In this document: positions 57,057 through 62,511 of the stretch, one piece after another
Position numbering within the stretch: the first letter of the stretch is position 1
How the letters are laid out: every line of letters starts with the position of its first letter
Origin: Dehalococcoidia bacterium
Lineage (GTDB): Bacteria; Chloroflexota; Dehalococcoidia; UBA2979
Length of the DNA: 64,000 nt
Direction: 5' to 3'
Assembly (NCBI GenBank): GCA_050248355.1
Contig: JBFWSN010000004.1
Location: 196,569 to 260,568, forward strand
Notes under the pieces: model-generated
The model's input: only the letters and a program-made list of their open reading frames with translations
Databases searched by the model: none
Told to the model about the DNA's origin: nothing
Translations under genes and position numbers: made by a program

Positions 57057-57266
57057 GGGTTGCGCGCCTACGCATACCGCTGGTCGAAGAGCAGCGGGTC
57101 GCGGCTGATGAAGCGGCCGAGCGTGGGGTCGTAGTTGCGGGCGCGGAGGAGTAGTAGCCGGTGTCGCCGGTGGCGTGGTCGAGCTGCTCGCCGGTGAAGA
57201 GCCAGTAGTTGCTGCTCGGGCCGGAGCGCGAGGTGACCGCGCCGGACACATCGTAGACGGAGGTGT
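57057..57266 (-). pseudogene. RHS-core remnant with frameshift and in-frame stop, no C-terminal tip
   Basis: NYWLFTGEQLD..GYY(fs)LRAR.YDPTLGRFISRDPLLFDQRYA*ARNP; 1-nt deletion at ~57150, TAG at 57070-57068. Confidence 0.9.
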
Positions 57267-57381
57267 GAGCATCACTAGTCTGATGCCCTTGGCTGGCGAA
57301 AAGCCCGAACCCTGGAGACGCACCTAGTGTCGTGATCACCGGTAGAATATCGTCAGGCGCGCCGAGTACGGGAAGTATGAA

Positions 57382-57567
57382 ATGTATGAGACGTTCAGCG
57401 CTATCATAATCGTTTCGATACATCTCGCACTGATCGCGATTTGCGCGCGGATGACGGACGAGAAAGCTCGTGGTCTGACCCTCGGCATATGGCTCGGCGG
57501 ACTTCTGTCTCTGGTCGGCCTGCTCATCGTCGTACTTATCCCGCCGAAGAACAGCGGCGAATCGTGA
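57382..57567 (+). CDS. Small 2-TM membrane protein
   Basis: Hydrophobic, K.RG...GIWLG.LL..VGLLIVVLIP pattern; lower GC. Confidence 0.6.
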   Translation: MYETFSAIIIVSIHLALIAICARMTDEKARGLTLGIWLGGLLSLVGLLIVVLIPPKNSGES

Positions 57568-57584
57568 GTGTGCGCGGTGTGCGA

Positions 57585-57905
57585 TTACGACGAGAGCGTC
57601 AGGCGCGCGAGGACGAACGCGAGGAGAAGGCAGCACACCACATTAACCGTCGCCCTGATCACTGTTCGTCGACGTTGCGCGGGACCTGGTTCACGCGTCC
57701 GTGCCGGCATCACGAGCAGCCATATCGCGAGTCCGAAGGCCTCGACTGACACGATTCCGGCGAGGACTGCCACAAATCGATACGCTGCCGTTGAAGTTGG
57801 ATTCGACCAGTTGCTCAAGGCCACCCAGAGCAGGAGCGCACCTGCGCCAGCACTGGTCGCAGCGGCGCGTACCGTCTGTGCGCGGGTGGCACGATCCTGG
57901 CTCAT
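57585..57905 (-). CDS. Small 3-TM membrane protein (possible orphan immunity)
   Basis: Three hydrophobic segments; GGAG RBS; co-oriented with the RHS array. Confidence 0.6.
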   Translation of the reverse strand: MSQDRATRAQTVRAAATSAGAGALLLWVALSNWSNPTSTAAYRFVAVLAGIVSVEAFGLAIWLLVMPARTREPGPAQRRRTVIRATVNVVCCLLLAFVLARLTLSS

Positions 57906-58025
57906 CGGCTGATACTCCGTCCTCGAGTCCGGGAGCGGAAGCGTCCTCCACGGTGCGGGGAACGCTGGAGACTTGCGTTGACACTAGTGACCGGTGGCGA
58001 TCGGTCGCCCCCGCGACGGTGAAGA

Positions 58026-58658
58026 TCAAACTACTGACACAGCATCACCGTCTGGAATCGTGGTCAGGTAAAGCGAGTGCCGTCGTAGGTAGACATAGGG
58101 TGCGATGAACCACCTCCAGCCGGCGATAAGCGATCCGCACTCAAGTCGGGTCGCTTCTCCGGGGCGAAGATCGACGGCCAACACCGGGCTGCGCTCCGAC
58201 TGGAACCGAATCTGGATCTCATGGTGACCAGGATGAACCTCGAACTGTACGGCTTCACCATCGCTAGCCGACGCAGCCCAAAGCCCGTCGAGATAGATTT
58301 CCATACTTCCGAGCCGGTTCATCCACTGGCGCCTCCTCTCGATGACGACCGCACATCTCTCGGGACTCGGCGGGAGGATCACTCCACTACTGATAGTGCC
58401 TCGGATCAGACGGTGGTAGCCAGGATACGCCCCGGGGGCCCGGAAGACGGGGCTATCGCGATCAGACGATCGTATCGCCTCACGAGCGATCACCAATGCC
58501 AAACCGAGGGCGAAGAACGAAATTAACCACGCAAGCGTGACTCTCAATAGGTTCAGGTTCTCAATGCCTGTCCAACCGATAGCGAATGTGAAGGCCGCAC
58601 ACAGGACCACGACGATGGCGAGCATGACACGCATCAGACGGACGGTGAGGTCTGTCAC
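58026..58658 (-). CDS. 2-TM + beta-sandwich protein, putative immunity B
   Basis: GGAGGGGGAG RBS; clear paralogue of 60036-60659 (ERR.QW..RLG.M.I..DG...RLECG...GWR....PY..LRRHSLYLT). Confidence 0.75.
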   Translation of the reverse strand: MTDLTVRLMRVMLAIVVVLCAAFTFAIGWTGIENLNLLRVTLAWLISFFALGLALVIAREAIRSSDRDSPVFRAPGAYPGYHRLIRGTISSGVILPPSPERCAVVIERRRQWMNRLGSMEIYLDGLWAASASDGEAVQFEVHPGHHEIQIRFQSERSPVLAVDLRPGEATRLECGSLIAGWRWFIAPYVYLRRHSLYLTTIPDGDAVSVV

Positions 58659-58829
58659 TTGCTCCCCCTCCGAATCGCATTCCACGATCGAGTAGCTCGG
58701 GGGTTGTACGCCGTCTCTCTCCGAAGGCGAGGACTAGTCCACCGCCGACGAAGAGTGGCATCCCCCGCATACCGATAGCCCGCGGGAGGGAAGGCAAGAT
58801 AGCCTGCAAGTCGACTGAGAAGCATCACC

Positions 58830-59988
58830 CTAACTCACCAACTCCACGAGTACAGGCCCACAGCTTAGTGTTAGCTCTTCAGCCTGCCCCATAGCCTGGA
58901 CGGCAAACTCGAGGCCCGCGATCTCGGCGACCGCCGCAGCTCCCACTCCCGATGCTGCAACAGGGGCGGCCGTCCAGATGACGACCCCAGCGATCACTGC
59001 CAGCCTCAACTCGCATTCGGACTCGATGTACACCTCAGCGATGGCCTTCGCAAGAGGGGCGCTCCCCTCGGCGCTGGCGGCCTCGAGCTCGTAGAGAAGT
59101 TCGTATCCGTCACCTATTGCCGTACCGACCGCATCGCCGACTCCCTCGACGGTTGACTCACCGCCGTCGACTGTGCTCTGGATGGCCTGGGCGACCTGCC
59201 AGCCGCAGTCGAGCAAGTCAAGAGCGCTGCACAACCCGGACGGATCAATGAACAGGAGCGGATTACTGCCCGCGTACACGTACCGCTGGTCGAAGAGCAG
59301 CGGGTCGCGGCTGATGAAGCGGCCGAGGGTGGGGTCGTAGTAGCGGGCGCGGAGGAAGTAGTAGCCGGTGTCGCCCGTCGCCTGGTCGATCTGCTCGCCG
59401 GTGAAGAGCCAGTAGTTCGTGCTCGGGCCGGAATGCGAGGTGATCGTGCCGAACACGTCGTAGACGTAGGTGTCGGTCACGGCCCCGGCGCCGTTGGTGA
59501 GGTCGCTCACGGAGCCGACGGCGTCGTAGGAGAAGTAGCTCTGGTTGCCCGATCCGTCGGTGGCGGAGATGAGGTCGAGGCCGTAGACGTACGTCCTCGT
59601 GCCGTCCTGGAGCACGACGGGCAGGCCCGCGTTGACGTCCCAGACGTAGGTGGTCGTGGAGCCGTTGACGGTGTGGGAGCGACGCACGCCGGCGCCGTCG
59701 TAGACGGAGGAAGAGGTGGTGCTGCTGACGACGGACTGCGTGAGGCGGTTCTCGTGGTCGAAGCTGAAGCCGTCGGAGTCGCGGCTGACCTGGTTGCCGT
59801 TGTCGTCGTATCCATAGGAGACGCCGTTCACCGACGTAAGCTCGTCGGCGTCGTTGTAGGTGTACGTGTCGGTGTTCTTCGCCGTGCGGTTGCCGTTGGC
59901 GTCGTAGGTGTAGGTGTCGGTCACGGGGCCGGGGTAGGTCACCTGGGTGAGCCGGTACACGTCATCGTACTGCAGGGTGGTCGTGCCG
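58830..59988 (-). CDS. Orphan RHS cassette B (partial YD repeats + RHS core + C-terminal tip), no convincing start
   Basis: YD repeats, FTGEQ.D..TGYYFLRARYYDP.LGRFISRDP, IDPSG. Homology to cassette A begins at 59988. Confidence 0.9.
59236..59988 (-). repeat. ~750-bp high-identity direct repeat with 61193-61947
   Basis: Collinear with offset 1957-1959; most visible differences are synonymous. Confidence 0.95.
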
Positions 59989-60035
59989 AGGATTTGGGGG
60001 GGTCCGTAAGGTCGTATTGCTCGGTCGCAGACGGA

Positions 60036-60659
60036 TCAGGTCTCTGACCTGACTGGATCATCGCCGACCAGGGTCAGATAGAGCGAGTGGCGGCGAAGAG
60101 CGATATATGGTCCAAGGAGCATCCTCCAACCCGTGCCTTTGAAACCGCATTCCAGTCGCACGACTTCTCCAGGATGCAACTGGAGGTTCACTGGTGGGCT
60201 GCTCGAAGCGTCGGCGCGCACTTGGACCTCACGGCGGCCGGATTCCGCGATCAGACGTGCGGTCTCGCCGGCTCCCACGAACGCTAGCCGGATTCCGTCG
60301 ACGTGGATGTCCATGTATCCGAGTCTACCTACCCACTGATTCCTCCGCTCCACGACGATCTCTCCTCGATTCTCCAGGGCGGTTGGATTCGCCTGCACTC
60401 GAGTGCTGGACTCCTGAGGGAGTTCGGGGAGCGCGACATGAACGATTTCGCCGCGCTGAGCACCCTGACGGAGCGCCTGGCCGGCGATCAACAGGGATAT
60501 CCCGAATACGAAGATCGCGAAAAGCCATGAGACAATAAAAAGGAATGGCTCGAGGTTCACGAGGGCCGCCAGGCCAAGAAGAAACAGCAGCACCGCCGTC
60601 ACGAAAGTGAAAGCGGCGAGTTGAAGGTAGAACAGGCGACCGGCCCAGCGCTTGAGCAA
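60036..60659 (-). CDS. 2-TM + beta-sandwich protein, putative immunity A
   Basis: AAGGAGGAG RBS before TTG; paralogue of 58026-58658. Confidence 0.75.
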   Translation of the reverse strand: MLKRWAGRLFYLQLAAFTFVTAVLLFLLGLAALVNLEPFLFIVSWLFAIFVFGISLLIAGQALRQGAQRGEIVHVALPELPQESSTRVQANPTALENRGEIVVERRNQWVGRLGYMDIHVDGIRLAFVGAGETARLIAESGRREVQVRADASSSPPVNLQLHPGEVVRLECGFKGTGWRMLLGPYIALRRHSLYLTLVGDDPVRSET

Positions 60660-60774
60660 TTGCCTTCACTCCTCCTTCACGGTGGAGAGACGGGGGCACC
60701 TCGAACCCGGGTTTCCCGTGACGCGCGTCGTTGCACCGGAAGCCAGCCCGTCGCGCAAGGAAATCCGGACACGT

Positions 60775-62338
60775 CTAGCCAACTGCATCGCTCACCAATT
60801 CCACGACCACGGGGCCACACGCCATCACGAGCTCCTCGTACTGCCCAAGGACCTGCGCCTCGAGCTCAACGCCAGCGGTGATCGCGGCAGCGGTGTAAGC
60901 GCCGGCGGTCGGAGCAGCAGCGACGAAGGTCACCGTAACTACTCCCGCGATCACGGCAATTCGTACGGCGCACTCCTGCTCGACAAAGGTAGTCGCAAGG
61001 GCCGCTGAAAGATCGGCGCTCCCCTCGGCTTTGGCGGCCTCGAGCTCATAGAGGAGTTCGTAGCCACCGATGACCGCGTCACCGACTGCGTCAGCGCCCC
61101 CGGCGATTGCGCCACCTACCGCCTGAGCTCCGTTGAGTAGCGCTCCACCCGCGTTATCCGGACAGTTCCACGGTTCAGTCCAACCACAAAGACCGGACGG
61201 GTCGACAAGCAACAGGGGATTACTGCCCGCATACGCATACCGCTGGTCGAAGAGCAGGGGGTCGCGGCTGATGAAGCGGCCGAGGGCGGGGTCGTAGTAG
61301 CGGGCGCGGAGGAAGTAATAGCCCGTGTCGCCGGTGGCCCGGTCCTGCTGCTCCCCGGTGAACAGCCAGTAGTTCGTGCTCGGGCCCGAGTGCGAGGTGA
61401 TCGTGCCGAACACGTCGTAGACGTAGGTGTCGGTGACGGTGCCCGAGCCGTCGGTGAGGTCGGTGACGGAGCCGACGGCGTCGTACGAGAAGTAGGTCTG
61501 GCTGCCGGAGCCATCCGTCGCCGAGATGAGGTCGAGGCCGTAGACGTAGGTCCTCGTGCCGTCCTGGAGCACCACCGGCAGGCCGGCGTTGACGTCCCAG
61601 ACGTAGGTGGTCGTCGAGCCGTTCACGGTGTGCGAGCGGCGGACGCCGGTGCCGTAGTACTCGGAGGAAGACGTCGTCCCTCCGACCACCGACTGCGTCA
61701 GGCGGTTCTCGTGGTCGAACGTGAAGCCGTCGGTCCCCCGGCTGGTCTGGTTCCCGTTGTTGTCGTAGCCATAGGAGACGCCGTTCACGGCAGTGAGCTC
61801 ATCGGCGTCGTTGTAGGTGTATGTGTCGGTGTTCTTCGTTAGTGCGGTTGCCGTTTGCGTCGTAGCTGTAGGTGTCGGTCACGGGGGCCGGGGTAGGTCA
61901 CCTGGGTGAGCCGGTACACGTCGTCGTACTGCAGGGTGGTCGTGCCGGCGTTGTCGACGACCTGGGTGCGGTTGCCGACGTCGTCGAGCGTGTAGGTGAA
62001 GCTCGAGAAGGTACTGCCGTTGTCGTTGTCGATGGCGGTGAGGCGGTCGGCGCCGTCGTAGGTGACGGTGGCGCTGACGCCGTTGGGGTAGCTCGTGACC
62101 TCGAGCTTGCCAGCGTCGTCGTAGGTGTAGGCGGTCTGGTTGGTGAGCCAGTCGGTCACGGTGCTCATGCGGTGGTTGCCGTCGTAGGTGTAGTCGACCG
62201 TCTTCGTGTCAGGGTACGTGATCCGGGTGCGGTCGCCCACTTCGTCGTAGGTGTAGCCGACGGTGACGGAGCCAGGGGAGGTGACGCTGGTGATGCAGTT
62301 GAGCGCGTCGTAGGCGGTGGTCGTGGTGCCGGTGTCAG
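60775..62338 (-). pseudogene. RHS cassette A (longer YD run + core + tip), N-terminally truncated, two +1 frameshifts
   Basis: Extra G in the run at 61883-61887 and an extra base at ~61840 relative to cassette B; VDPSG motif; tip intact. Confidence 0.88.
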
Positions 62339-62482
62339 GCCCCGAGAATCCGCGACACCGCCTCATGCAAAACGCCGTTTGAGGTGATGCAGTGGCCGGC
62401 GTCGATGCGCGCGACGCCCTCGATGTCTGTCAGGCGGCCGCCGGCTTTTTCGACGATGGCCAGGAGGGCGGCGATGTCGGAA
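62335..62482 (-). pseudogene. C-terminal fragment of an inositol-monophosphatase/HisN-family gene
   Basis: DIAALLAIVEKAGGRLTDIEG..RIDAGHCITSNGVLHEAV matches the IMPase (W)DiAA..IV.EAGG..TD...asNG.LH motif; the 5' part is absent. Confidence 0.7.
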
Positions 62483-62511
62483 GGGGGGTGGGCGCGGGTA
62501 GGATGGGCGGC

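Follow-up and report, generated by a model that had tools for sequence, protein, structure and literature searches.

A truncated orphan array of RHS cassettes in a Dehalococcoidia genome, with a rare tip family and putative membrane immunity proteins

WapA of Bacillus subtilis is a Sec-exported RHS toxin of Gram-positives; the WapA tips known so far act as nucleases, and the immunity proteins against them are soluble. In Enterobacteria, orphan arrays are made up of tandem 3' fragments of core, tip and immunity gene that lie downstream of the main rhs gene. Such orphan rhs-CT/immunity arrays, described from Salmonella, E. coli and Dickeya, can become active when they recombine with the main gene (PMC3967940, PMC3150448). 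In single-membrane bacteria, RHS/YD-repeat toxins are reported to be exported with no T6SS involved (PMC12704120). Tse5 (RhsP1) of Pseudomonas aeruginosa has a 149-aa RHS tip behind a DPxGL self-cleavage motif, with no enzyme motif but with predicted transmembrane and amphipathic helices; once inserted into a membrane, this tip makes ion-selective pores (PMC9637101; PMC10684867). The immunity protein, Tsi5, has two predicted transmembrane (TM) regions, and pairs of a pore-forming RHS tip and a two-TM immunity protein are thus a described kind (PMC9637101). In the T7SS of Staphylococcus aureus, the membrane immunity protein TsaI neutralises the membrane-depolarising polymorphic toxin TspA, and the genome contains strings of non-identical paralogous immunity genes (PMC9484751).

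Structure and boundaries of the island

The window analysed here is a stretch of 64,000 nucleotides from a Dehalococcoidia bacterium. Positions 57060-62334 of it, on the minus strand, comprise two cassettes in tandem, with a third reduced to a stump. In each of the two, an RHS core and a DPSGL motif are followed by a tip of 133-137 aa and then by a 2-TM/beta-sandwich protein of 207-219 aa, here called the partner. This stretch of about 5.3 kb is a foreign, variable island, bordered by purS on one side and by a duplicated gene fragment on the other, and it carries the damaged 3' end of an RHS toxin locus. Its features are listed from the upstream border, with the basis of each assignment in brackets.

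62335..62488, minus: duplicated 3' fragment of an inositol-monophosphatase-like gene, about 45 codons and stop (upstream island boundary)
61839..62334, called as ORF 61839-62366, minus: unit A, 5'-truncated RHS/YD repeats (Pfam RHS_repeat)
61839..61887, minus: unit A, two one-base insertions that break the frame (DNA alignment with unit B and sequence)
61189..61838, minus: unit A RHS core, ending ...RDPLLFDQRYAYAGSNPLLLVDPSGL (NCBIfam TIGR03696)
60775..61188, minus: tip 1, 137 aa, within ORF 60775-61788 (homology to tip 2)
60036..60659, minus: partner A, 207 aa, 2-TM hairpin then beta-sandwich, putative immunity protein (homology to partner B)
59232..59990, minus: unit B RHS repeats and core (TIGR03696 and homology to unit A)
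58830..59231, minus: tip 2, 133 aa, within ORF 58830-59960 (homology to tip 1)
58026..58685, minus: partner B, 219 aa, 2-TM hairpin then beta-sandwich, putative immunity protein (AF2 model)
57585..57905, minus: 106-aa hydrophobic ORF, uncertain as a gene (two hydrophobic segments)
57382..57567, plus: 61-aa ORF, uncertain as a gene (two hydrophobic segments)
57060..57267 (approximate), minus: third RHS core remnant (tblastn to unit B and sequence)

Six stretches of unit A match Pfam RHS_repeat (1.2e-20). The RHS-associated core domain (TIGR03696, Rhs_assc_core, NCBIfam) is found in unit A (3.8e-18, residues 124-200 of ORF 60775-61788) and in unit B (1.2e-17, residues 167-243), and stops exactly at the tip junction. 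The repetition of the cassette is far beyond chance; BLASTP gives E=9e-168 between the two RHS ORFs and 2e-39 between the two partners. The homology of unit B to unit A starts about 45 nt past the partner A stop. In 60-nt blocks, the DNA of the units is 80-97% identical as far as DPSGL and about 50% identical beyond it. Protein identity also drops sharply at this motif: the cores are 89% identical, the tips 47% (61 of 133 aligned residues) and the partners 35%. The codon usage of the cores matches that of the host (GC3 of 0.91 in the unit A repeats, 0.94 in the unit A core and 0.95 in unit B, against 0.92-0.95 in host genes), while that of the tips (0.67 in tip 1, 0.72 in tip 2) and partners (0.65-0.67) is foreign.

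A sequence-only reading of this DNA had proposed two tandem units of RHS core, DPSG motif, tip and membrane gene, and all of these pieces are found on the minus strand. Its description of unit A as truncated repeats plus core missed two frameshifts relative to unit B, one in a run of five C at 61883-61887 and the other a one-base insertion at 61841, which produces a TAA stop. The inserted letters are also present in runs X1 and X2, where 323-nt contigs match 61591-61913 without a single difference or gap; these runs may be the source sample. The third, tipless core that it listed is present but is itself frameshifted and ends at QRYA and a stop before reaching DPxGL, abutting the purS stop codon; in tblastn it is 75% (residues 163-202) and 84% (residues 202-234) identical to unit B, with one internal TAG. 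The small membrane ORFs do follow unit B, but they are mechanical ORF calls for which no relatives were found. The 106-aa ORF has no family match in Pfam, NCBIfam or PADLOC and is not clearly gene-like in GC by codon position (0.65/0.58/0.66); the 61-aa ORF, also with no family match, is weakly gene-like (0.56/0.42/0.68).

At the upstream border the gene fragment reads ...DIAALLAIVEKAGGRLTDIEGVARIDAGHCITSNGVLHEAVSRILGA followed by a stop codon, which lies directly against RHS sequence that begins mid-repeat. Some 5 kb beyond it, a 79%-identical copy forms the end of the full inositol-monophosphatase-like gene. In G003, a genome of the same genus, two copies are found in the same layout, and homology to G003 stops at 57059. 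The array is cut at both island borders, its N-terminal delivery part is absent, and in the genome, which is 91% complete, there is no compatible full-length RHS gene; the sole other RHS-repeat gene is a TcB/TcC-type fusion of 29% identity. The array is therefore an orphan relic, what is left at the 3' end of an RHS polymorphic-toxin locus, a state that the earlier reading overlooked. With no delivery part, no matching full-length RHS and a frameshifted unit A, the toxins are undeliverable in this genome.

Tips, partners and related loci

The two tips are diverged homologues with four Cys common to both, and their composition is acidic, Gly/Ala/Val-rich and hydrophobic, all as had been described from the letters. 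Net charge is -15 in tip 1 and -18 in tip 2, with no His, two Lys+Arg, and 43-49% Ala+Gly+Val. A hydrophobic segment of 30-38 residues is retained in three of three independent members of the tip family (Kyte-Doolittle 19-residue means of 1.9, 2.2 and 2.75); in the two window tips it is Ala/Gly-rich with a moderate peak (1.9-2.2), and in tip 1 the hydrophobic stretch comprises residues 71-97. Over four tip-family sequences the invariant columns are Gly, Ala, Val, Leu, Tyr, Glu, Ser and Cys, with no conserved polar constellation. The AF2 tip model is all-helical but unusable (pLDDT 38.8).

The tips have no match in Pfam, NCBIfam, PADLOC or the PDB sequences, and among 1.84 billion (1.84e9) representative proteins their only relatives are one near-identical variant and one 95-aa fragment. 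Judged by sequence comparison they are a very rare, new family, which agrees with their earlier description as uncharacterised. Both tip frames are intact. A strain variant of tip 2, seen as protein P0003 and in runs X1 and X3 on contigs, has 21 nt inserted in frame behind 59125 and differs further by a few substitutions. The joint divergence of tips and partners proposed earlier is seen, and it has proceeded as coding sequence: dN/dS is 0.23 between the tips and 0.39 between the partners, dS being saturated.

Both partners have two long hydrophobic helices followed by a beta-sandwich. In the AF2 model of partner B (pLDDT 66.9) the helices span residues 6-43 and 46-75, and strands are spread across 93-209. 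The N-terminal tails carry charges of +3 and +6 and the loop is neutral and seven residues long, a positive-inside pattern that predicts both ends inside the cell and a cytoplasmic C-terminal beta-sandwich. A Foldseek search with partner B returned generic small beta-sandwiches only. In an Atlas structure search the look-alikes of partner A were hypothetical proteins of about 200 aa and DUF2846-like folds; for partner residues 93-200, small hypothetical proteins reached a TM by row of 0.85-0.87 and a DUF2846 cluster 0.59. All Pfam matches of the partners are sub-threshold. The genome holds a third partner paralogue, alone on contig C2 after rimM with no tip upstream, and all three paralogues have intact frames. 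TM-less relatives of the partner C-terminal domain adjoin unrelated genes. The possibility, raised at the outset, that partner homologues elsewhere would lack linkage to RHS tips thus holds for these relatives and for the C2 paralogue, but only for part of the homologues overall.

The same RHS lineage occurs in two genomes of the same family, G451 and G031, with cores 58-70% identical. Four of their five tips have a hydrophobic segment, the fifth being cut to 30 aa, and all five are followed by an ORF with at least two hydrophobic segments; these ORFs are purely membrane proteins without a soluble domain. A full-length relative in G031, 58% identical, has an N-terminal signal-peptide-like segment and DUF6531. 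Among more distant cores (28-38% identical, in Actinomycetota MAGs), six of the seven inspected loci lack a clear downstream TM ORF.

Co-folding of tip 2 with partner B, a check suggested by the sequence-only reading, gave an ipSAE of 0.60 (the median of 0.62, 0.60 and 0.01), with 0.00 for the best of three controls. Of 80 solved complexes, 58 reach the mark, as do 2 of 110 mismatched pairs, but this value lies in a weak band, as an ipSAE of 0.60 or below was given by only 7 of the 80 solved complexes and by both mismatched pairs that passed; with our own four-row alignments as input, these calibration counts hold roughly. The runs share at least 13% of contacts, and partner pLDDT is at least 60. 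The modelling lends weak support to binding of tip 2 by partner B.

A candidate function and its alternatives

We give a probability of about one half to the reading that the cassettes encode membrane-inserting RHS toxins of a new sequence family together with their membrane immunity proteins, resembling Tse5-CT/Tsi5 functionally but not in sequence; toxicity, membrane target and immunity are the parts that we infer. The cassettes retain the end of an RHS shell with its self-cleavage motif (DPLLF...DPSGL), the tip and the downstream membrane protein. The full-length parent would have been a Sec-exported, WapA-like RHS protein of a single-membrane lineage, and its tip would be cut off after DPSGL. 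The hydrophobic segment of the released tip, as a helical hairpin, would insert into the cytoplasmic membrane of the target and dissipate the membrane potential. The partner, predicted to be a 2-TM hairpin with a DUF2846-like cytoplasmic beta-sandwich, probably guards against its tip as the cognate immunity protein, and may hold or block it within the membrane. The two cassettes would then be diverged alleles of one toxin/immunity family on a host-like core. Their present role is probably immunity only, or that of a silent reserve: the intact partner genes, including the lone C2 paralogue, may protect, and the cassettes may be kept for tip switching.

The membrane-acting toxin proposed earlier is plausible: the tips have a hydrophobic hairpin and lack catalytic-type residues, the partner has two TM, the co-fold passes weakly and related loci show the same pattern. 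Toxins of this kind have already been described, with Tse5-CT/Tsi5 (PMC9637101). Weighing against the membrane reading are the moderate, Ala/Gly-rich hydrophobic peak, the unusable tip model, the co-fold run at 0.01, the partner relatives found apart from RHS and the rarity of a clear downstream TM ORF at loci with more distant cores. Nothing was found in support of the kin-recognition role proposed alongside it. Tips that are new-fold toxins of a cytoplasmic target, acting by binding or catalysis, with the beta-sandwich neutralising them and the 2-TM hairpin merely an anchor, are possible but unlikely. A cytoplasmic target would also fit, because the best-conserved partner region is the predicted cytoplasmic domain and not the TM hairpin: partner A is identical to P0010 at 90 of 100 positions in this domain and 27 of 44 in the TM region, and to partner B at 45 of 100 and 18 of 59. 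Strong acidity, a feature of many soluble proteins, is moreover unusual for proteins entering anionic bacterial membranes. Tips with no His, two basic residues, no conserved polar constellation and no enzyme family or solved relative (Pfam, NCBIfam, PDB sequences) nevertheless speak against such a toxin, as do the hydrophobic segment kept in three independent tips and the coupling of hydrophobic tips to purely membrane ORFs in related loci, and an extra import step would be needed in a single-membrane lineage without T6SS genes.

It is distinctly unlikely, in our view, that the island is decaying junk whose tips and partners are now functionless, their frames still open only through recent decay. 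The two frameshifts of unit A, the stump of the third core, the cut ends of the array and the missing full-length RHS would all agree with this, as would the count of promoter-like sites (0 found, 0.6 expected by chance, the test being weak in this organism). Against it stand intact frames in both tips and all three partner paralogues, dN/dS below 1 and the in-frame nature of the strain variant, and orphan immunity genes are known to be kept for protection elsewhere (PMC10539506). It seems very improbable that the partner acts as a membrane effector in its own right, as a two-TM protein of holin-like or SLATT-like type, or that it is an unrelated membrane accessory travelling with the cassette. 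One paralogue is indeed lone and tipless, and the TM hairpin gives sub-threshold matches to Phage_holin_3_6 (E=0.017, Pfam), SLATT_5 (0.035, NCBIfam) and RTasSLATT (0.0046, PADLOC), but these are far below curated cut-offs and cover hydrophobic helices only, where chance similarity is common. Lying right after each tip and co-diverging with it, the partners show the pattern that is classical for immunity genes, and the co-fold weakly supports binding.

Comparison with known systems

Among the described systems Tse5-CT/Tsi5 offers a functional parallel to the membrane-inserting reading: the window tips, of similar length, have one hydrophobic hairpin and are followed by a 2-TM partner. They differ from the Tse5 tip in their strong acidity, and a search of PDB sequences with the tip profile, run to an E of 10, brought up no RHS chain, in a copy that may not include the Tse5 entry. 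Tse5 has a PAAR-like N-terminus and belongs to the T6SS of a double-membrane cell, whereas no T6SS sheath gene and no Omp85/BamA were seen in the window's genome and the full-length G031 relative opens with a signal-peptide-like segment. Unlike Tsi5, the partner has an extra C-terminal beta-sandwich of about 110 aa. In three of five family members each, this domain matches DUF2846 (PF11008; best E 0.018) and BiPBP_C (PF06832; 0.0034), but all scores are below the Pfam gathering cut-offs, and we know of no immunity role for either family.

The tandem core/tip/immunity fragments, the sharp identity break at the core end and the differing base composition of tip and immunity gene are shared with the orphan arrays of Enterobacteria. 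Those arrays accompany a main rhs gene, while here no main gene of matching core is present and the array is truncated at both borders. Neighbouring tips in Enterobacteria are usually unrelated, and the adjacent tips of the window, as had been pointed out from the letters, depart from this in being homologous. A parallel with WapA/WapI lies in the N-terminal hydrophobic signal-like segment and DUF6531 of the G031 relative, but the tips here are hydrophobic, the partners are membrane proteins, and the N-terminal part has been lost from the window. Although delivery (T7SS/LXG) and families differ, the proposed membrane-depolarising toxin with a membrane immunity protein in several paralogues also resembles TspA/TsaI.

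The cassette array and its genomic setting

The sequence-only reading proposed a cassette array in which RHS repeats, a core, a DPSG motif and a tip are followed by a membrane gene, and this organization was confirmed by Pfam and NCBIfam matches together with the ORF layout. The island consists of two tandem cassettes, units A and B, each with a tip (a putative toxin) and a downstream partner (a putative immunity protein), and a third piece of core, all on the minus strand within 57060-62334.

Features of the RHS island and its border (window coordinates)
62335-62488: duplicated 3' fragment (last ~45 codons) of an inositol-monophosphatase-like gene, bordering the RHS island
61839-62366, minus strand: unit A, RHS-repeat ORF
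60775-61788, minus strand: unit A, ORF with core and tip 1
60775-61188, minus strand: tip 1, 137 aa
60036-60659, minus strand: partner A, 207 aa
58830-59960, minus strand: unit B, single ORF with repeats, core and tip 2
58830-59231, minus strand: tip 2, 133 aa
58026-58685, minus strand: partner B, 219 aa
57585-57905, minus strand: small hydrophobic ORF past unit B
57382-57567, plus strand: small hydrophobic ORF past unit B
About 57060-57267: third core piece, frameshifted, with a stop after QRYA that precedes DPxGL; abuts the purS stop codon

RHS/YD repeats (PF05593, Pfam) were identified in the first ORF of unit A (1.2e-20) and in unit B (3.5e-09), and the match in the second ORF of unit A (5.7e-4) is slightly below the cut-off. 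The RHS-associated core (TIGR03696, NCBIfam; cut-off 32.5 bits) scored above threshold in both units (1.2e-17 and 3.8e-18), and its match stops exactly at DPSGL, directly before the variable tip. The first cleavage-site motif is DPLLF, in which the Gly is replaced and both Asp are kept. The downstream gene is found behind both tips (2/2) and diverges along with them.

GC content is 0.59-0.68 over the island compared with 0.69-0.78 in the flanks. GC3 of the core (0.91-0.95) equals that of host genes (0.92-0.95), while it is 0.67 and 0.72 in the tips and 0.65 and 0.67 in the partners. The tips and partners are foreign in composition and the core is host-like.

The RHS sequence opens mid-repeat at 62334, right after the stop codon of the gene fragment that borders it. 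The full inositol-monophosphatase-like gene lies ~5 kb further on in the same genome (G000:C4, equivalent to window 67485-68300), and glycosyltransferase, membrane and acyltransferase genes are found between fragment and gene. In G003, a closed genome of the same genus (PurC 95% identical), homology ends at 57059 and the slot carries other low-GC cargo in the form of a 1394-aa ORF, after which the duplicated fragment recurs. The fragment-plus-gene layout is also the same in this genome, with a PIN-like ORF in between. The 3' end of the inositol-monophosphatase-like gene thus looks like an integration hot spot. The swapped cargo and the stop of homology in G003, together with the mid-repeat start, suggest that the array sits in a variable hot spot, and it is cut at both ends.

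No further copy of the core was found in the window's genome (91% complete), and the sole other RHS-repeat gene there, a 2319-aa SpvB/TcdB/RHS fusion adjoining a TcA-like gene, is only 29% identical. The cassettes are therefore orphans, and delivery of their tips is impossible in this genome. The full-length shell (>1000 aa) and the N-terminal delivery/export part are absent from unit A, which is also frameshifted. A scan for promoters and terminators was uninformative: it found no promoter-like site where 0.6 were expected, and 2 terminator-like sites where 2.0 were expected. The stretch is contained in three DNA sequencing runs, X1-X3, all from one study, and no RNA run is among those listed as containing it.

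Two further observations concern other contigs of this genome. The fusion gene belongs to a Tc (ABC) toxin-like locus (G000:C23:698-12769, L054:99-12170), in which a 2319-aa frame of TcB-TcC type, with SpvB, TcdB middle regions, FG-GAP and RHS repeats, is followed by a 1704-aa frame with a TcA C-terminal TcB-binding domain and an ABC_toxin_N region. Window positions 62220-62270, in the RHS repeat of unit A, recur as an exact 51-nt copy at G000:C2:246933-246983; the copy is intergenic, with a long minus-strand frame on one side, an ABC-transporter ATPase-like gene on the other and no other RHS sequence nearby.

Divergence of the two copies and the tip family

The RHS ORFs of units A and B align at E=9e-168. 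Identical residues number 173/195 in the cores, 61/133 in the tips and 73/192 in the partners. At the DNA level, identity per block is 48-58/60 nt up to DPSGL and past this motif falls to 25-36/60 nt in most blocks, with one block at 44/60. Such an abrupt break at the core/tip junction is the hallmark of RHS tip replacement. Homology of unit B to unit A begins ~45 nt past the stop codon of partner A, as would be expected for stacked orphan cassettes. The adjacency of two homologous tips is unusual. Relative to unit B, unit A has two 1-base insertions, one in a C5 run (61883-61887) and one at 61841 that makes a stop; the same insertion letters are present in contigs of X1 and X2, runs that are possibly the source sample itself. 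Contigs in X1-X3 depart from the core into other sequence at 59611 and 61589.

The two tips have net charges of -18 and -15, no His, 2 Lys+Arg and an Ala+Gly+Val content of 43-49%. They have four Cys in common, one of them immediately past the cleavage site. In all three independent members of the family there is a hydrophobic segment of 26-38 residues (Kyte-Doolittle 19-residue means of 1.9, 2.2 and 2.75). The AF2 model of the tip is all-helical, but with a pLDDT of 38.8 from a 4-row alignment it is unusable, and we therefore make no fold claim. In a protein Atlas the best-scoring neighbours of the tip reached 0.84-0.86, with low recognition, and provided no lead.

The claim that the tips are an uncharacterised family was supported. 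At E up to 1, Pfam gave no match for either tip, colicin-type pore-forming and glycine-zipper toxin families included, nor is there a match in NCBIfam or PADLOC. Against all PDB chain sequences (E up to 10) the tip profile found 10 unrelated chains and zero RHS proteins, in a copy where the cryo-EM entry of Tse5 (PMC10684867) is expected. Judged by these family and structure libraries, the tip family appears to be undescribed. The tip HMM found nearly no relatives in 1.84e9 representative proteins, where there were five hits (P0002-P0006). One is the window's own protein (P0002), one is a near-identical tip 2 variant with a 7-residue insertion (P0003), and P0004, a 95-aa fragment that is 39% identical, is the sole true further relative. 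P0005 and P0006 are repetitive proteins that match via many short stretches, and we rejected them as spurious. A full-length RHS protein with such a tip might be concealed where representatives are taken at 50% identity, so longer proteins, metagenomes and genomes of the class were also searched. Among longer proteins, a word-based search recovered none but the window's own two ORFs. JGI metagenome contigs yielded no tips, and among 400 genomes of the class, searched in six frames, there was a single borderline match (E=0.0045).

The P0003 variant corresponds to an in-frame 21-nt insertion at window 59125, which adds one Gly/Ala/Val-rich unit in the N-terminal part of tip 2 and also occurs in one contig each of X1 and X3. 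The tip's N-terminal portion may vary in its number of repeats.

The partners and relatives of the cassettes

In the AF2 model of the partner (pLDDT 66.9) two long helices (6-43 and 46-75) precede a beta-sandwich (93-209), and from the charge pattern the two ends, and thus the beta-sandwich, are predicted to face the cytoplasm. Foldseek retrieved just generic small beta-sandwiches. The Pfam cut-offs for DUF2846 (13.2 bits at best vs 34.3) and BiPBP_C (14.3 vs 26.8) were not reached; three of the five family members match DUF2846 and three of the five BiPBP_C, only at E 0.0034-0.1. Neighbours in the Atlas were Actinomycetota hypothetical proteins of ~200 aa (score 0.92) and DUF2846-like folds. 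These likenesses are leads only. The hairpin scored below the cut-offs of SLATT_5 (NCBIfam, 13.6 bits vs 60) and Phage_holin_3_6 (Pfam, 15.6 vs 28.4), and its match to RTasSLATT of PADLOC (E=0.0046) is not above the curated cut-off.

A search with partner B alone recovered only P0001, a 98%-identical variant. A profile search added P0011, which lacks the TM region, and P0010, an NCBI protein with the full architecture. P0010, whose MAG bears the label Dehalococcoidia bacterium, is the sole partner relative with a named source, and its C-terminal domain is identical to that of partner A at 90/100 residues. Neither a genome-contig scan with P0010 nor a metagenome-contig scan with the partner profile A6 gave a match. 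The full architecture is found in 1/99 genomes of the order, the window's own, and 4/400 other genomes of the class match in the C-terminal domain only. A third paralogue in the window's genome (G000:C2:86594-87289, L007:1480-2175, minus strand, 231 aa) is 56% identical to partner A, with a GC3 of 0.73; it is a lone gene, placed immediately after rpsP, a KH-domain gene and rimM and without an upstream tip, and was not found in the other 98 genomes searched in the order. The proposed linkage of partners to RHS tips therefore stands in part: partners A and B lie directly behind tips, but this paralogue has no RHS tip and the TM-less relatives of the C-terminal domain are without RHS linkage.

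A co-fold of the cognate pair, tip 2 with partner B, gave weak support, with an ipSAE of 0.60 (runs 0.62, 0.60 and 0.01) compared with 0.00 for the best of three controls; the runs share at least 13% of contacts and the partner pLDDT is at least 60. The mark was attained by 58/80 solved complexes and 2/110 mismatched pairs, and an ipSAE of 0.60 or less by just 7 of those 80 solved complexes plus both mismatched pairs that passed, counts that hold roughly since our own shallow alignments were used. Because gene position had already made binding likely, the co-fold adds modest support.

Actinomycetota MAGs supply the nearest cores among species-representative genomes, at 28-38% identity. In the related genome G451, of the window's order, an array of four cassettes (67-70% identical) lies at a contig end. 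G031, also of this order, contains a full-length gene of 1855 aa (58% identical), whose protein starts with a signal-peptide-like hydrophobic segment and bears DUF6531. In these two genomes 4/5 tips have a hydrophobic segment, the fifth being cut to 30 aa, and behind each of the five comes an ORF in which at least two segments are hydrophobic. No homology of these tips to those of the window could be demonstrated. The G031 tip was not accepted as a family member, as its match to P0004 (BLASTP 1e-4 over 44 columns in a single comparison; hhalign probability 11% over 25 columns) is too weak for this, and all-against-all BLASTP of the G451 and G031 tips and membrane ORFs gave short matches that look driven by composition. 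No Omp85 and no T6SS sheath gene was found in the window's genome, which fits a single-membrane cell that exports RHS proteins via Sec.

We also note features of RHS loci elsewhere. In the G451 array (L049, G451:C4:221000-232642, read as the reverse complement and running to the contig end) each cassette has DPxGLC and a different tip, three of them hydrophobic and Gly/Ala/Cys-rich; an ORF of 90-186 aa with several hydrophobic segments follows each tip, and the three full-length tips and the frame continuing from the truncated one all terminate in Lys-Glu. In five RHS loci from Solirubrobacteraceae MAGs (L023, L025, L026, L027 and L028) the tips are 103-153 aa, acidic and, by eye, helical-looking, and two have a Gly-rich hydrophobic stretch. 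All five end in a Cys with acidic residues after it, a loose reminder, homology not being demonstrated, of the CGPVxVELVS ending of the window's tips.

Possible functions and known systems

We interpret the island as an orphan RHS tip/immunity array with a new, very rare family of putative membrane-inserting toxins and their putative cognate membrane immunity proteins, a reading to which we give a probability of about 0.5. The extreme acidity of the tips speaks against action in the membrane, as does the predicted cytoplasmic position of the best-conserved partner domain. The tips may instead be putative toxins that act in the cytoplasm, which we consider unlikely; every independent tip member has the long hydrophobic segment. 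The existence of partner relatives without RHS linkage also counts against the membrane reading. That the partner is a protein other than an immunity protein seems very improbable, and a partner gene directly follows each tip of the array. The island could also be a pure relic, which we consider improbable. The frameshifts of unit A speak for it, and dN/dS below 1 speaks against it: the values are 0.15 (core), 0.23 (tip) and 0.39 (partner), dS being saturated in tip and partner. The suggestion that the tips may be a kin-recognition signal was rejected, as no feature supports it.

For the membrane-toxin reading we tentatively put forward a more specific version. A Sec-exported RHS protein of a single-membrane, high-GC lineage would deliver unrecognised small, acidic, Cys-bearing helical-hairpin toxins that insert from outside into the target membrane. 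Immunity would rest on a new protein architecture in which a 2-TM hairpin, recognising the toxin within the membrane, is joined to a cytoplasmic DUF2846-like beta-sandwich. The two cassettes and the lone third immunity paralogue would be a record of toxin and immunity co-diversifying allele by allele. In the window's genome the cassettes would at present confer immunity or keep tips in silent reserve.

Should the tips prove to be membrane toxins, a sequence family without known relatives would join the short list of pore-forming polymorphic toxins. Its source would be a poorly studied single-membrane lineage, in which no outer membrane stands between the toxin and its target. The two diverged tip/partner pairs and the third paralogue are a ready set for asking what sets immunity specificity, the TM hairpin or the soluble domain. 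From the standpoint of annotation this is an ordinary kind of locus: orphan RHS cassettes in a variable island, with the classical contrast between a host-like core and foreign tips.

Activation of orphan RHS tips by recombination, and orphan immunity, are described in PMC3967940 and PMC10539506. The closest functional precedent would be Tse5-CT with Tsi5; according to PMC9637101, the RHS tip Tse5-CT, of 149 aa, forms pores, and Tsi5, which confers immunity to it, is predicted to have two TM regions. By AF2, Pfam and NCBIfam the window's tips are similar in having predicted hydrophobic/amphipathic helices, no enzyme motif and a 2-TM partner, but the profile search of PDB sequences gave no sequence relation between them and Tse5-CT. 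RHS orphan cassettes, and a pore-forming RHS tip with a TM immunity protein, are of a known kind, whereas the tip family, the partner architecture of a 2-TM hairpin with a DUF2846-like domain, and the neighbouring homologous tips are new.
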